Assembly (NCBI GenBank): GCA_016840085.1
Contig: JAEOTA010000084.1
Location: 1-64,000 of the forward strand
Length of the DNA stretch: 64,000 nt
Direction: 5' to 3'
From: Promethearchaeota archaeon
Lineage (GTDB): Archaea; Asgardarchaeota; Lokiarchaeia; Sigyniarchaeales; SOKP01
Positions within the stretch are counted from its first letter, which is position 1. Each line of letters opens with the position of its first letter. The notes under the pieces were generated by a model. It was given only the letters and a program-made list of their open reading frames with translations. It did no database searches and was not told where the DNA came from. This document shows, piece after piece, positions 6,390 to 62,715 of the stretch. A program made the position numbers and the translations under genes.

Positions 6390-6501
6390 GCTTCTGTAGT
6401 GTAGTGTGGTCAATTTATTCTTGAAATTAATAATCTCGGATTAAGACTGAGCATACGAGGCTCTCACCCTCGGGACCCGGGTTCAAATCCCGGCAGAAGC
6501 A
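6390..6501 (+). tRNA. tRNA-Glu(CTC) with 37-nt D-loop intron (~6414-6450, position ~21/22)
   Basis: Acceptor GCTTCTG/CAGAAGC, anticodon arm CGAGG-CTCTCAC-CCTCG, T arm CCGGG-TTCAAAT-CCCGG; BHB-like helix GGTC/GACT flanks the insert. Confidence 0.92.
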
Positions 6502-30857: not shown

Positions 30858-31298
30858 TTACAAGATTTTTTCACATTCAGTATTTATTACTTTCATAGTA
30901 GTATTGAAATCTTGCCACCAATCCTGACCTTGTTGAGTTACTAACATTGAATCTCGTTTCCGAGAATCAAGACATCTAATTTCTTCTTTATGAGCTTTAA
31001 TTTTTGCTTTCCAAATTTCAGAAAATATGTTTTGTAAATTAATTTTTACTTTTTTAATTAGTTCCTCATAGGAAACAGATACATCTTCTGTTTTTTGTAA
31101 TCTTTGCAGTTGTTCAAATTTCACTTTCTCTTTTGCACGATTTAAATCACTACAGCTTATTTTTATAGAAAAAGGATCATCTTTTCCCCATTTACAAAAT
31201 TTCTGAATTTCACATATTGAACAATAATTTTCAAAACTGATTGTATAGTCCTCAAGACCTACTATTGAAAAGTTTAAAATTTTGGGCATAGAATTCAC
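30858..31298 (-). CDS. hypothetical Cys-containing protein
   Basis: YCSICEIQKFC..C motif; otherwise helical. Confidence 0.7.
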   Translation of the reverse strand: MNSMPKILNFSIVGLEDYTISFENYCSICEIQKFCKWGKDDPFSIKISCSDLNRAKEKVKFEQLQRLQKTEDVSVSYEELIKKVKINLQNIFSEIWKAKIKAHKEEIRCLDSRKRDSMLVTQQGQDWWQDFNTTMKVINTECEKIL

Positions 31299-31461
31299 TT
31301 TATTTATATAATTAAAAATTTAACCTTTTTCCTATTTATTTTAGGTCAAAAAATTTTTTAGTAATTTATTATTTAAATTATTCGATCAATTCTTAATTTA
31401 ATAATTACTATATTAATTTTTAAACAAAAAGTACTTTAAGAACTATAACTAATCTCTAATT

Positions 31462-31578
31462 GGGAAAGTAGCTTGGGAGAGTGGACGCTTATGATCGAAG
31501 TATCTCTTCAGTGGCTTAGCCTGGTATAGCGCACGGCTGATAACCGTGAGGCCGGGGGTTCGAAGCCCCCCTTTCCCA
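31462..31578 (+). tRNA. tRNA-Ile(GAT) with intron near position 7/8 and a duplicated 5' end
   Basis: Anticodon arm CACGG-CTGATAA-CCGTG, T arm GGGGG-TTCGAAG-CCCCC, 3' strand CTTTCCC-A; two candidate 5' strands GGGAAAG (31462) and GGGAGAG (31475). Confidence 0.88.
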
Positions 31579-31653: not shown

Positions 31654-32247
31654 ATGAAAAATATAATAATCTCCGGAACACCTGGTTGTGGAAAAACATC
31701 AGTTACCAGAGAAATTTCAAATTTAGTGGAAGCTAAAATAATTTCTCTAAATGAATTAGCAATTTCAGAAAAATTTTCATTTGAATATGATGAAGAAAGA
31801 AAAACTTACATTGTGAATTTTAAAGTATTTCTGCCTTGTGTATTAAAAAAGATTAGGGCGATTGAGCAAAATAATCCACCATTTCTGATAATAGAAAGTC
31901 ATTTTTCTGATATCATTCCAGAAAATTTTATTGATTTTGCTTTTATTTTAAGATGTGATCCGGATGAATTATTTAAAAGATTAGAAAAAAAAAATTATAA
32001 TTCAAAAAAAATTCTTGAAAATATTCAAGCAGAAATTTTGGGTAATTGTATAAATTATTTTATTCAAAAACAAACAAAAATCCCTCTTTATGAAATTGAT
32101 ACTACAAATCTTAGTATTAAATCAGTAGCAAAAATTATTATAGATATTGCAGTTGAAAATCAAGAGGGAAACAATTATTATATAGGTAAAATCGATTGGC
32201 TAGAAAAATTATTTCAAGAAAACCGTTTAGAAGAGTTTTTTGATTGA
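31654..32247 (+). CDS. AK6/Fap7-type adenylate kinase/ATPase
   Basis: ISGTPGCGKT, IIESH, LRCDP..RL..KILENIQAEI. Confidence 0.92.
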   Translation: MKNIIISGTPGCGKTSVTREISNLVEAKIISLNELAISEKFSFEYDEERKTYIVNFKVFLPCVLKKIRAIEQNNPPFLIIESHFSDIIPENFIDFAFILRCDPDELFKRLEKKNYNSKKILENIQAEILGNCINYFIQKQTKIPLYEIDTTNLSIKSVAKIIIDIAVENQEGNNYYIGKIDWLEKLFQENRLEEFFD

Positions 32248-32265
32248 GAATCAAAATTAAACAAC

Positions 32266-33927
32266 GTGGAATATATGGAATGGGAGATATCTGATTTTGA
32301 CGCACTAGGAAGAATTGGAAAATTAACTATAAATAAAAAACAAATGAGTACTCCTAATTTATTTCCTGTAGTCCACCCTTATAAAAGTTTTATTTCCACT
32401 TCAGATTTAAAGAAGATAGGTGCTCAATGTGTTTTTACGAATGCTTATATTATCTATCAGAATGCTCAAATACGAGATGATATCTTGAGAAAAGGAATAC
32501 ATTCACATTTAAAATTTGGCGGAATAATCGCAACAGACAGCGGAGCTTTCCAAAAATATATGTACAATAAGAGAAATTTAGAAATTCAACCAAATGATAT
32601 AGAAAAGTTCCAAGAAGATATTGGTACTGATTTTGCCGTAATCTTAGATGAACCTGTGCAACCAGATGATGATTATGAAACAGCCAAGAAGAGAGTTGAT
32701 ATAACCATTGAAAGAGCTAAAGATAATATTAATCGAAGAATAAAAAATGATTGCTACTGGTTTGGACCTATTCATGGGGCTAGGTATGACGATCTACTAA
32801 GAACGAGTACACTTGAAATGAGTAAATTAAATTTTAGTGTTTATGCAATAGGAGGTTTAGTTAAATCTCTTTTAAATTATAGATTTGATTTGGTAATTAA
32901 AATTCTTCTGAATGTAAAAAAGGATATTGTACGCAATAAACCCATTCATATGTTTGGATTAGGATTACCACAATTCTTTTCATTAGCTATAGCATGTGGA
33001 TGCGATCTAATGGACTCAGCAGCATATATTCTATTTGCAAGGGAAAACAGGTATTTCACATTATCTACAGGAACAAGAAAATTAGAAGAATTAGAAGAAT
33101 TTCCATGTCACTGTCCTATATGCTGTGAATATAATCCTAAAGAAGTTTTAAATTTCGACGAAAAATTACGAACTGAATTAATAGCTAAACATAATTTATA
33201 TATTTCTTTTTCTGAATTAAGAACAATACGTCAAGCTATTAAAGAAGGTAATCTATGGGAACTTGTTGAACAACGGATTCGAAATCATCCTACTTTGGTT
33301 AAAGCTTCAAAGTTGATTAAATCATATTTACCTTTATTTGAAAGCCATGAGAAATTGTATAAAACGCATGGTAGGCTATATTCTTCCCCAGAAAGCATCG
33401 GAAGACCTCTGATTTATCGTTATGAATCAAAACTAAAGAATAATTATAGAGTTCCACAAGATGCAAAATATTTAATTATTTTACCTGAATTGGATGTAAA
33501 GGGGGATCAATCACCAAGTATTAAGAAATGGCTAGAGGAATTAGATACTAATTCAATAATTCCTAGAAAATTTCTTCATGTCGCATTTCTCTCTGATTTT
33601 TATGGAATTTTACCCTTAGAACTAAGTTCCTCTTTTCCTATGGGGCAATATGAATCAATAGATCTATTGACCAAAAATGATTTAATTTATCGGGATTTTA
33701 TACAAAAAACAGAATTTTTCTTTAATCTTTATGCACCTCATTATTCGAAAAGTGGAATATTAATACCTGATAAATTTATTAATCAATTTAATGAAATTAC
33801 AGAATTTAAAAAAAAAAATATTATAAATAACTTAACCAAAATGTTGAATTCTAAATTTAAATTAAACGTTGCTTCTTTCCCTAAAATAACACATCTTATA
33901 CAATACTTTAAGAGTGATGAAAAATAA
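32266..33927 (+). CDS. tgtA: archaeosine tRNA-guanine(15) transglycosylase
   Basis: GRIGKL, TPNLFPV, TDSGAFQ, HMFGLG, DLMDSAAY, CHCPIC, HNL; no C-terminal PUA domain evident. Confidence 0.95.
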   Translation: MEYMEWEISDFDALGRIGKLTINKKQMSTPNLFPVVHPYKSFISTSDLKKIGAQCVFTNAYIIYQNAQIRDDILRKGIHSHLKFGGIIATDSGAFQKYMYNKRNLEIQPNDIEKFQEDIGTDFAVILDEPVQPDDDYETAKKRVDITIERAKDNINRRIKNDCYWFGPIHGARYDDLLRTSTLEMSKLNFSVYAIGGLVKSLLNYRFDLVIKILLNVKKDIVRNKPIHMFGLGLPQFFSLAIACGCDLMDSAAYILFARENRYFTLSTGTRKLEELEEFPCHCPICCEYNPKEVLNFDEKLRTELIAKHNLYISFSELRTIRQAIKEGNLWELVEQRIRNHPTLVKASKLIKSYLPLFESHEKLYKTHGRLYSSPESIGRPLIYRYESKLKNNYRVPQDAKYLIILPELDVKGDQSPSIKKWLEELDTNSIIPRKFLHVAFLSDFYGILPLELSSSFPMGQYESIDLLTKNDLIYRDFIQKTEFFFNLYAPHYSKSGILIPDKFINQFNEITEFKKKNIINNLTKMLNSKFKLNVASFPKITHLIQYFKSDEK

Positions 33928-34361
33928 TTTTTCTAGATAAAATATACGCTTATGGCCATGAAAATATTAAAGGTACTCATAAAACAACGATAGAACTTAC
34001 AAAAGTTAAAAATTTAACAAAGAAAGGAAATTGCATTATAGGGATTAATTCTACAAAAGCTTGTTTTGATTTAAATTCCACTTTAAAAGAAAAAATAAAT
34101 AATGGAAAAAAAATTGAAATAACATTAAAAGTAGAAAATCTCCAAGATTCTTTCTATGGTTTTGGAAATAAAGAGTTAAGATTATTAGATAAAGAGGATG
34201 TGGTATTTCGTACAAGTAATTATATTTGTAACAGAACTGTGTTGGTTAATTGTACTAAATCATCAAATGAGATAAATCGTGAATTAATTGATAAATTAAA
34301 AATTCCAGGAAAAAGATTATCAATAATATTTGAAATAAATGAGTTAAATGGGAAATATTAA
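33924..34361 (+). CDS. DUF371 family protein (missed by ORF track; ATA start or 1-nt slip in A5 after ATG 33917)
   Basis: Open frame IIFLDKIYAYGHENIKGTHKTTIELTK..LTKKGNCIIGI..VFRTSNYICNRT..KSS, stop TAA at 34359-34361. Confidence 0.85.
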   Translation: MIFLDKIYAYGHENIKGTHKTTIELTKVKNLTKKGNCIIGINSTKACFDLNSTLKEKINNGKKIEITLKVENLQDSFYGFGNKELRLLDKEDVVFRTSNYICNRTVLVNCTKSSNEINRELIDKLKIPGKRLSIIFEINELNGKY

Positions 34362-35499
34362 CAAGGTAAAAATCACCTATCTGAAATTAAAAAAGAAAGA
34401 TGGACAAGATTTTATCAAATTTATAAAAAATAATCTCAATAGTAAACAAATAATTAACCAAAAATTCAAAATTTTACATGAAAAAGATTACATTTTATTT
34501 CCAATATTTGAAAATCAAGTTCTACTTGATAAAATAACTAAAATATTACGTAATCAAAACGATTTTGAAATTATTTCTAAAGAAGGAATAACCAATGTAA
34601 AGTATAAATATAAATCACTTGAGGAAGCATTAGAAGGTATAATTCCACATAAATATTCAGAATTAATTCCAAAATCATATGATATTATTGGAAATATCGC
34701 TGTAATTGAGTTTGATAAGTATAATCATATAAATGATAAAGAATTCAATGAATACAAGAAAAAGATTGCTAAAGCGATAATAGAAGTAAACAACAATATT
34801 AAAACTGTTTATGAAAAAAAAAGTCAAATTAAGGGAGAGTATCGCTTAAGAGCATTAGCTTTTTTATGTGGTGAAGATAAATCCGAAACAATATATAAGG
34901 AAAATGGTTGTGTTTTTAAGCTTGATATTAAAAAAACATACTTCTCTCCAAGATTAGTTTTCGAACGGCGAAGAATTACCTTAAGTAATATAGAAGAAAA
35001 CGAGGTAATAATTGATATGTTTGCGGGAGTTGGAACTTTTTCAATTCAAATTGCTAAAAATTATAATGTAAAAATTCATGCTTTTGATTTAAATCCTAAT
35101 GCTATTAAATTTCTTAAAAAAAACATTAAGATAAATAAATTAAAAGGAAGTATAACCCCTTATCAGATGGATATAAAACATGTTCTCAACCCATTGAACA
35201 AAGTAGGTACCTCGTTAAATCACAGGGCAGATAGAATAATTATGAATTTACCAGAGAAATCAATCGATTTCATTGATATTAGCTGCTATTTAATGAAAAA
35301 ATCAGGAGGTGTTTTACATTTCTATCAAATTTCTGACAAACCGAATCCGCTTGAAAATACAATTAAACATTTAGAGACTCATTTATCTAAATTCAATTGG
35401 ATTATTGATAAAATACTCAATTCTAAAATTGTTAAATCATATTCACCAACATCAGAATTAGTTGTTGTTGATTTGAAAATAAAAACTTTAGATTACTAA
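34348..35499 (+). CDS. trm5: tRNA (guanine37-N1) methyltransferase Trm5/Taw22 family
   Basis: SYDIIGNIA, GEYRLR, YFSPRL..ER, DMFAGVGTF, RIIMNLP. Confidence 0.93.
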   Translation: MGNINKVKITYLKLKKKDGQDFIKFIKNNLNSKQIINQKFKILHEKDYILFPIFENQVLLDKITKILRNQNDFEIISKEGITNVKYKYKSLEEALEGIIPHKYSELIPKSYDIIGNIAVIEFDKYNHINDKEFNEYKKKIAKAIIEVNNNIKTVYEKKSQIKGEYRLRALAFLCGEDKSETIYKENGCVFKLDIKKTYFSPRLVFERRRITLSNIEENEVIIDMFAGVGTFSIQIAKNYNVKIHAFDLNPNAIKFLKKNIKINKLKGSITPYQMDIKHVLNPLNKVGTSLNHRADRIIMNLPEKSIDFIDISCYLMKKSGGVLHFYQISDKPNPLENTIKHLETHLSKFNWIIDKILNSKIVKSYSPTSELVVVDLKIKTLDY

Positions 35500-35713
35500 A
35501 TTGAAGTTATGAAAAATTATTAGAAAATAATAAGGTAAAGTCATTTTTACCTTTGATAATTTTAAAATCCAAAATGTTAGAAAACGATTAATTATATCTT
35601 AATAATAGTTTTTAACATTCGAAATCATTATACTAATAAGAGAAAAATTTTAATTATTTGAGTCTTAATACAAATTAAGTTATTTATATTTTAAACTCAA
35701 TAAGCCAAATTGC

Positions 35714-35816
35714 GGACTCGTAGCCTAGCCTGGTGGTTTTTATAGTTATAAAGCTAGGTAAATAGGGCGTTGGACTTCTAATCCAAAAGTCGCAGGTTCG
35801 AATCCTGCCGGGTCCG
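35714..35816 (+). tRNA. tRNA-Arg(TCT) with 28-nt D-loop intron (35734-35761, position ~19/20)
   Basis: GGACTCG/CGGGTCC acceptor, TTGGA-CTTCTAA-TCCAA; full hBHBh' (CCTA/TAGG, GCCT/AGGT, bulges GGT and AAA). Confidence 0.95.
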
Positions 35817-35970
35817 CTTATTTTTAGTTTAAGTAGTAAAAATTACGGGTGAATTTATCCAGAAATTCTGAATTAATTAATAAATCGTTAATATAATTAA
35901 TTTATTAAATCAGATCTCTTAGTTATATTTATTCTATTATCCTAAATATAAACATGAGTGTCTAAGATTA

Positions 35971-62180: not shown

Positions 62181-62340
62181 AATTACTTTTTCCTAGCTAA
62201 ATAAAATATTTTTGTGTTATATATTTTAATAAATTTTTATCATTTATTTTAATCGCATTAAAAATTGAATCCTTTAATAAAAAATTTTTTTATTCTTATA
62301 ATCTATTATTACATACTAAATTTAAACTTGATATCAAGAA

Positions 62341-62458
62341 GCGGGAATTGCCAAGTCTGGTCAAAGGTTATTGCGAGCTGATTCGAAAGCTGACTATAGG
62401 CGGTGGACTTAGAATCCATTCTCGTAGGAGTTCGGGAGTTCAAATCTCCCTTCCCGCA
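62341..62458 (+). tRNA. tRNA-Leu(TAG) with 33-nt D-loop intron (62365-62397)
   Basis: GCGGGAA/TTCCCGC acceptor, GTGGA-CTTAGAA-TCCAT, long variable arm; BHB helix GGTC/GACT with bulges AAA and ATA. Confidence 0.93.
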
Positions 62459-62609
62459 TTCTTTTGAAATTTTTCTTTTCTTATGTAAAGAAGAAGAATT
62501 AAAAAAAGAAAAATTTTAATGGATTCATACTCTATCTTTAATACTAGTTATAGATTTCTATACACATTTATGAAAAAAACTCGTTAAAACAAACTTTCTT
62601 AATTATCTT

Positions 62610-62715
62610 GCTCCTATAGTGTAGTCAGGCCAAGCAATGTTTATTATTTAAATACATACTTGAATGCTAGGCTTTCACCCTGGTGACCCGGGTTCGAATC
62701 CCGGTAGGAGCACCA
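62610..62715 (+). tRNA. tRNA-Glu(TTC), encoded CCA, 28-nt intron in the D stem (62637-62664, position ~24/25)
   Basis: GCTCCTA/TAGGAGC-ACCA, CTAGG-CTTTCAC-CCTGG; BHB helix CAAG/CTTG with bulges CAA and AAT. Confidence 0.94.

Follow-up and report, generated by a model that had tools for sequence, protein, structure and literature searches.

The tRNA-Ile(GAU) gene in the window (the whole 64,000-nucleotide stretch of DNA that was analyzed) is predicted to contain a 30-nt intron at position 7/8, and it is preceded by a tandem copy of its own 5′ acceptor strand. This tandem-copy design is real and conserved, and it is probably functional. We give a probability of about three in four to a mechanism in which the leader copy acts as a decoy that would pair with the 3′ acceptor strand and free the real 5′ strand for the splice motif, with splicing followed by trimming of the leader. 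If true, this is a new tRNA-processing element, a leader standing in for part of a tRNA so that a buried splice signal can form, and its processing would involve an exchange of strands and probably call for RNase P to cut again.

Structure of the gene and identity of exon 1

The elements of the gene lie on the forward strand. A decoy acceptor strand in the 5′ leader, GGGAAAG (31462..31468), was assigned from comparison and folding models. It is followed by a spacer, TAGCTT (31469..31474), which is a decayed copy of tRNA positions 8-13 and is 5-7 nt long in relatives; bases 31470-73 are able to pair with 31513-16 and close the splice motif. Exon 1, GGGAGAG (31475..31481), represents mature positions 1-7, of which positions 2-5 belong to the central helix and 6-7 to the first bulge. 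The intron (31482..31511) has a central helix of GGAG (31476-79) and CTTC (31506-09), AGT bulges at 31480-82 and 31510-12, and an inner stem formed by 31483-90 and 31498-505. Exon 2 (31512..31578) comprises positions 8-73 of tRNA-Ile(GAU), including the anticodon GAT (31539-41), the acceptor 3′ strand CTTTCCC (31571-77), and the discriminator A (31578); CCA is not encoded. The intron sequence TCGAAG looks like a T loop, a resemblance that may be due to chance.

The helix and bulges agree with the description in the initial annotation of this DNA. As in archaeal bulge-helix-bulge (BHB) tRNA introns, a 4-bp central helix lies between two 3-nt bulges, and cleavage behind the second base of each bulge would yield a correct tRNA; an intronic helix h′ of 8 pairs is also present. 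The motif departs from the strict BHB form in that a G faces a G and a 4-bp helix begins after a 2-nt gap. Without an outer helix stacked immediately on the second bulge, it counts as the relaxed HBh′ type. The intron belongs, in this relaxed form, among the non-canonical BHB introns, and the gene is neither split nor permuted, being one contiguous gene in normal order.

Decoy-type tRNA genes are missed or miscalled by annotation tools. Default ARAGORN missed this gene, which was miscalled as Ala when introns were allowed, and the Rfam match spans model positions 6-65 only. It is the only gene detected for tRNA-Ile(GAU), and the locus must give a working tRNA, since the assembly has no other full match. 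The 22 tRNA genes of the source genome with an intact T arm were screened, and no further decoy was found among them. Four further tRNA genes in the window have D-arm insertions (6390-6501, 35714-35817, ~62340-62460, and 62610-62715); we read them as Glu, Arg, Leu, and Glu, and default ARAGORN missed all four. Between tRNA-Ile and tRNA-Arg lies a conserved tRNA-modification block (31654-35817) with kinase, archaeosine TGT-like, and Trm5-like genes.

Fifty-one distinct intron-bearing alleles were collected from 31 species genomes, representing five genera of one Promethearchaeota family, and from metagenome contigs. The species genomes were located via the anticodon arm or BLAST, and the metagenome contigs via a pattern fixing the inner GGGAGAG; an anticodon-pattern scan of all genomes returned mostly unrelated taxa. 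Sixty-four intron-less alleles were also obtained, of which 59 were scored (five were left unscored by the script) and 58 entered the nuclease-adjacency count. Intron-less tRNA-Ile genes of the genus (L010-L029, L219-L226) mostly have TTCCC-like bases ~5-10 nt upstream of G1, which could fold back on the 5′ acceptor strand as a hairpin or be a palindromic site bound by a protein.

The intron at 7/8 and the upstream tandem copy, both reported in the initial annotation, are confirmed by this comparison. An outer copy is present in all 51 intron-bearing alleles, with its pairing conserved, and a full one in none of the 64 intron-less alleles. Assembly duplication is ruled out by this recurrence and by spanning contigs from two runs: a contig from a 2017 run of a different study covers 31300-31539 gap-free with 8 other letters, and a contig of the 2021 study from which the assembly may come covers the same stretch with no differing letters. 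The only RNA-library contig at the locus is unspliced, may be DNA, and carries no information on splicing. The outer copy pairs 7/7 with the acceptor 3′ strand in 43/51 intron alleles, whereas no 7/7 match occurs 12-16 nt upstream in the 59 scored intron-less alleles, so the tandem copy is not due to chance. Weak matches of 5-6 pairs at decoy distance were seen in only four of those 59.

Comparison identifies the inner GGGAGAG as exon 1 and gives the intron a length of 30 nt. Intron-less orthologues read GGGAGAG-TG-GCTT with a G5-U68 wobble in 45/59, the others having different acceptor pairs. Excision of 31482-31511 would yield this same 5′ end, and the inner copy matches the orthologues, as expected if GGGAGAG is the mature 5′ strand; the initial annotation had proposed both. 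The inner copy is always G(G/C)GAGAG among the 51 alleles, and the outer copy has ten forms. The bases directly 3′ of the inner copy and directly 5′ of U8 vary among alleles, which fixes the junction at 7/8. Intron length is 30 nt in 49/51 alleles and 31 or 32 nt in the other two.

Pairing within the intron bears on the same assignment. In 45/51 alleles all four bases of the intron's central strand can pair with the inner copy, against 5/51 for the outer copy, and in one genus both sides of the central helix change together (CGAG with CTCG). In the inner stem, two-sided changes occur in six of the eight pairs, and 85% of cells are paired. A single 43-nt intron (31469-31511), with the outer GGGAAAG as the mature 5′ strand and the inner copy intronic, would likewise produce a valid tRNA, with a perfect A5-U68 pair and no need for strand exchange, and its central helix would have 3/4 pairs here and 4/4 in the five alleles with an outer GGGAGAG. 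In most alleles, however, such an intron puts an A-C mismatch beside the cut, and its inner stem is weaker (1.9 vs. 2.8 of the first three pairs). The outer copy, moreover, would form U-U mismatches in 8 alleles and varies where the inner copy is the invariant intron-less sequence, and in tRNA-Ser (see below) a perfect inner stem follows the inner copy. This simple excision, also considered in the initial annotation, fits poorly, and we regard it as quite improbable.

Nested splicing would remove the 30 nt first and then 13 nt by a second EndA cut, leaving the outer copy partly in the mature tRNA. Since the outer GGG is invariant, junctions 1/2 to 4/5 would give a correct sequence, and a second cut would account for removal of a decoy that out-competes the real strand. 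But after the first excision a 4-bp helix for a second BHB is present in only 0-6 of the 51 alleles at any junction, the best (4/5) being almost all G-U, and the invariant G7 of the outer copy is explained by pairing and not by nesting. The gene is thus not of the nested (intron-in-intron) type, and this order of events, including the nested introns with a GGGAAAG mature end offered in the initial annotation, is very improbable. The fit of the central strand, the co-changes, and the lack of a conserved second-excision helix together point to the inner copy as exon 1 and to the 30-nt intron.

Pairing of the leader copy and its proposed role

The pattern of variation supports selection on the outer copy for pairing with the 3′ acceptor strand. 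Decoy positions 1, 3, and 7, which face C of that strand, are invariant G in 51/51 alleles, and position 2 is C in four alleles with acceptor C2-G71, a G-C to C-G swap at 2:71 in two genera. Positions facing U are A or G (21 G), T nine times, and never C, while neighboring and spacer positions drift freely and take indels. The decoy-acceptor helix is 98.9% paired on a gap-free alignment, and the whole structure exceeds all shuffles and slid controls, values that relatedness inflates. All Ile alleles probably share one origin, so these counts overstate independence.

Judged by sequence, tRNA-Ser(GCU) is a second, independent instance of the decoy design. An intron at 6/7 occurs in seven genomes of the family, and 7/7 carry a decoy, a 7-nt acceptor-strand copy (GCTCAGG or GCTCGGG) that precedes exon 1 by 10-12 nt; the spacer is unrelated. 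Intron-less tRNA-Ser(GCU) genes of the family have no decoy. The central helix uses positions 1-4 and is perfect in two alleles and relaxed in the others. Of the intron-decoy loci (L349/L367, L350, L385, L416, L418, L420), three abut a related Vsr-like nuclease gene.

The copy could also be a neutral relic of intron insertion, an old 5′ end left behind that is dispensable for splicing. Some decoys are exact copies of spliced positions 1-13, fitting such an origin, and lateral spread of one block would yield co-occurrence without function. Origin and function are compatible with each other, however, and the C-facing positions are fixed in 51 alleles and track the 2:71 swap while flanks and spacer drift. 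The Ser case retains only the 7-mer, and the modelled splice helix fails without the copy. We consider neutrality improbable and return to the decoy reading.

The initial annotation described the leader as a placeholder for both the acceptor and the D strand. Comparison and folding models favor the acceptor part. The D-strand part is dispensable: D-stem likeness is lost from the spacer in several Ile alleles (TAATTC, AAACCC, TACAGT), and the spacer is unrelated in tRNA-Ser. Where the likeness is kept, the spacer fits equally well as a helix closing the splice motif with exon-2 positions 9-12 (93% of cells paired). Tethering of the 5′ exon, the role first proposed, would be a side benefit, the main job seemingly being to free positions 2-5 for the splice helix.

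Candidate TATA-like elements lie at 31417-25 and 31434-40 (region 31417..31440, forward strand), and either would probably start transcription at or upstream of the decoy. In the 51 alleles, TATA-like words peak 43-46 nt and 27-29 nt ahead of the decoy, with only 2 hits at -14. Since these words cluster upstream of it, the decoy is probably transcribed. A sigma-70 promoter scan was set aside as unsuited to archaea.

Folding was modelled with ViennaRNA ensembles for the 51 alleles, and the models predict a switch. With the leader, the decoy occupies the acceptor (median 0.95) and the splice helix has a median of 0.46. Deleting the leader confines the real strand to the acceptor (0.99) and leaves the splice helix at a median of 0.00. 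The leader raises the splice helix in 51/51 alleles, and the modelled helix is ≤0.5 in 27/51. The decoy has A5 in 42/51 alleles, which mismatches an invariant C of the intron; by duplex energies, this mismatch would favor pairing of the decoy with the acceptor and leave the intron to the real strand. In the modelled spliced RNA the decoy is still on the acceptor (median 0.85), and the true strand is ahead in 1/49 by secondary-structure energies.

Energies that favor the decoy before and after splicing would also suit a gene that is not spliced to a normal tRNA, in which the working molecule keeps the decoy as its acceptor strand with an enlarged D arm. Position 8 of the outer copy, however, is C, A, or G in 34/51 alleles, the D strand is broken in several, and the intron helices are under selection. 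Such a molecule is therefore most improbable. C-to-U editing at position 8 was considered as a rescue of the outer copy, and it leaves A or G there unexplained.

In the decoy mechanism, the precursor transcript would begin upstream of the decoy. For an intron at 7/8, the 4-bp central helix has to be built with tRNA positions 2-5, which are normally locked in the 7-bp acceptor stem; the leader copy would take the 3′ acceptor strand and free the real one. EndA would then cut after 31481 and 31511, with the decoy holding the short 5′ piece in place, RtcB would ligate G7 to U8, the real strand would retake the stem by strand exchange, and RNase P would trim the 13-nt leader. A first RNase P cut would trim to the decoy only, and a second would be needed after ligation. 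U8-A14 and D-T loop tertiary contacts are part of established tRNA structure. Because the decoy is still favored after splicing in secondary-structure energies, the last step would depend on tertiary folding or on RNase P acting as a sink; the true strand would win through these contacts or through an irreversible RNase P cut.

An EndA catalytic subunit, RtcB, and RNase P RNA are all encoded in the genome. EndA is represented by one 202-aa catalytic subunit, and a second paralogue was not found with the Pfam models used. A broad-specificity EndA is only putative here, since the splice motif lacks a directly stacking outer helix and only a single EndA subunit turned up. Two tandem RNase P RNA genes, 3 nt apart and clearly diverged, occur on the minus strand of another contig of the source genome (G000 contig C66:15325-15981; L319, L320). 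Of 43 genus genomes with a match, just this one has such a pair. The pair lies near a contig end, which calls for caution about assembly; the duplication is unique to the source genome and does not track the tRNA-Ile intron.

In Methanopyrus kandleri, end trimming occurs before intron removal (PMC3695527). A decoy would let an acceptor-junction intron survive such a trim-before-splice order.

Block transfer and the Vsr-like nuclease

On trees built from the upstream and the downstream genes, intron and decoy change state jointly at least 17-18 times, frequently between close sisters; shuffled labels on the upstream tree give at least 20 state changes. The upstream context includes a conserved divergent ORF (30858..31298, minus strand), and the downstream marker was a Fap7/AK6-like kinase ORF, named from motifs (31654..32247, plus strand). 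Chimeric assembly at the shared tRNA 3′ part was rejected as the cause of the patchy tree, as both flanks give the same sister pairs; single loci may be affected. In some genera (L330, L337, L339, L328) the kinase/TGT block is upstream and divergent of tRNA-Ile and not downstream, so the tRNA-Ile gene there was inverted or moved.

As read from the alignments, the promoter, decoy, and intron pass between genera as one unit. DNA from a palindromic A6T6 anchor (31347..31360), shared with intron-less alleles, to the intron groups by intron state and not by flanks. Promoter-to-intron identity is 0.91 between two genera with downstream DNA 0.56 alike, and 0.38-0.41 between sisters with downstream DNA 0.80-0.86 alike. 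Contigs with intron-less alleles diverge from the window at 31360 and rejoin it at 31510. The anchor is the apparent left border of the mobile block in the source genome.

An ORF of ~490 aa, whole or in part, is just upstream of 20/51 intron alleles and 0/58 intron-less ones; at L208 it spans 562-2028 on the minus strand. In relatives that bear it, this nuclease gene sits between the conserved divergent ORF and the tRNA promoter, where the source genome has nothing. Close homologues are confined to the locus (8/8 among 161 genomes at tRNA-Ile). A weak match to the nuclease in the genome (C85, E 2e-8) was rejected, being a separate 694-aa zinc-finger-repeat protein at another locus. At several nuclease-bearing loci the anchor occurs twice, around the nuclease gene, and the first copy precedes the recipient's own promoter. 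Recombination between the two anchor copies would leave the nuclease-free layout of the window.

We take the features of the protein to be a weak HTH, a treble-clef-like zinc motif, a YD...EYDGxxH motif, and a PIP-box-like end. The YD...EYDGxxH motif, a candidate catalytic motif, is conserved at motif level. Pfam and PHROGs gave weak HTH matches only, and the atlas neighbors are DUF723/DUF4379/DUF559 proteins. The structure model (pLDDT 76) suggests a Vsr-like nuclease fold, matching I-Bth0305I (Z 7.5, rmsd 3.4, 98 aligned) and Vsr (Z 7.4); these scores are modest, and RAP domains tie with them (Z 7.7-8.2). Foldseek with the model returned nothing significant.

For 15/25 distant homologues, a tRNA with an intron (Ser, Leu, Gly, Lys, Asp, Val, or Cys; introns by eye) is found no more than ~300 nt away, against a chance expectation of roughly 2% (~45 tRNAs in 4000 genes). 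In their tree the groups follow tRNA type, except for Gly. Vsr-like nuclease genes directly adjoin tRNA-Leu, Gly, Lys, Asp, Val, and Cys genes that have introns (L354, L356-L361, L368, L369, L421, L422, L426), and at L357 and L359 the nuclease stop codon touches the tRNA 3′ end.

Locus fidelity, cross-genus transfer, and decay are indirect signs of a nuclease that may cut the empty allele and spread by gene conversion. That the decoy-intron unit moves between species in relatives together with a selfish nuclease gene, which drives its spread, seems to us somewhat more probable than not. On balance, we also lean toward arrival of the source allele as a block (promoter, decoy, exon 1, and intron) spread by a Vsr-like nuclease since lost, probably by anchor recombination.

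Relation to known introns and homing systems

Archaeal tRNA introns at 3/4 are known in Thermoproteales (PMC4090602). Non-canonical BHB introns of Thermoproteales and of intron-rich Asgard families (PMC4090602, PMC11291895, bioRxiv 10.64898/2026.10.13.758758) are, like the present one, short and ORF-less, with a 4-bp central helix, 3-nt bulges, a relaxed HBh′ form, and a non-canonical position. As far as the cited papers describe them, the tRNA-Ile intron differs from these introns in its place at the acceptor/D junction, its use of four acceptor bases for the splice helix, and its constant association with a leader copy. A 2026 Asgard census pooled acceptor-stem cases as "other" and made no mention of leaders, tandem copies, or homing (bioRxiv 10.64898/2026.10.13.758758). 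In the literature searched, which did not take in some key older archaeal-intron work, no description was found of a decoy acceptor leader or of nuclease-linked Asgard tRNA introns.

Split and permuted tRNAs of Nanoarchaeum, Caldivirga, and Cyanidioschyzon also use extra-tRNA sequence to hold pieces during EndA processing (PMC4090602, PMC4033280). In contrast, the tRNA-Ile leader would pair with the gene's own 3′ acceptor strand and not with a trailer, and it lies outside the central helix.

By analogy, the nuclease-intron pairing may work like collaborative or intronless homing in phages (PMC2988022). In collaborative, trans, or intronless phage homing (T4 MobE; SegB in a tRNA region), a free-standing nuclease gene is likewise found by an ORF-less intron, with patchy and lateral distribution and frequent decay or loss (PMC2988022). 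Relatives of the source organism have such a pair, a free-standing nuclease gene beside an ORF-less intron; the source genome itself lacks the gene. A Vsr-like fold with an N-terminal HTH is shared with I-Bth0305I, an EDxHD/Vsr-like homing endonuclease (PMC3239194). Unlike the phage systems, the Asgard case involves chromosomal tRNA genes and protein-spliced BHB introns. The Asgard block also carries its own promoter, decoy, and first exon, and each nuclease clade keeps to one tRNA type.

A broader and more tentative proposal, with a little less than even odds, is a mobile Asgard unit whose free-standing Vsr-like homing nuclease would convert an essential tRNA gene, bringing in a new promoter, decoy, exon 1, and intron. 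The decoy would serve as an RNA chaperone in cis that allows acceptor-stem introns to be spliced and imposes splicing before trimming, and related nucleases, each devoted to one tRNA, would be a route by which tRNA introns arrive and spread. The 2026 census left the arrival route of tRNA introns open, and free-standing nucleases were not among the things tested (bioRxiv 10.64898/2026.10.13.758758). The nuclease link and the closely related empty and filled alleles make this question directly testable in vitro. In the anticodon arm of tRNA-Ile at L262/L263 and L203/L311, extra introns resemble tandem duplicates of that arm; the duplicated stem is the inner helix, and local duplication is a possible route of intron gain.
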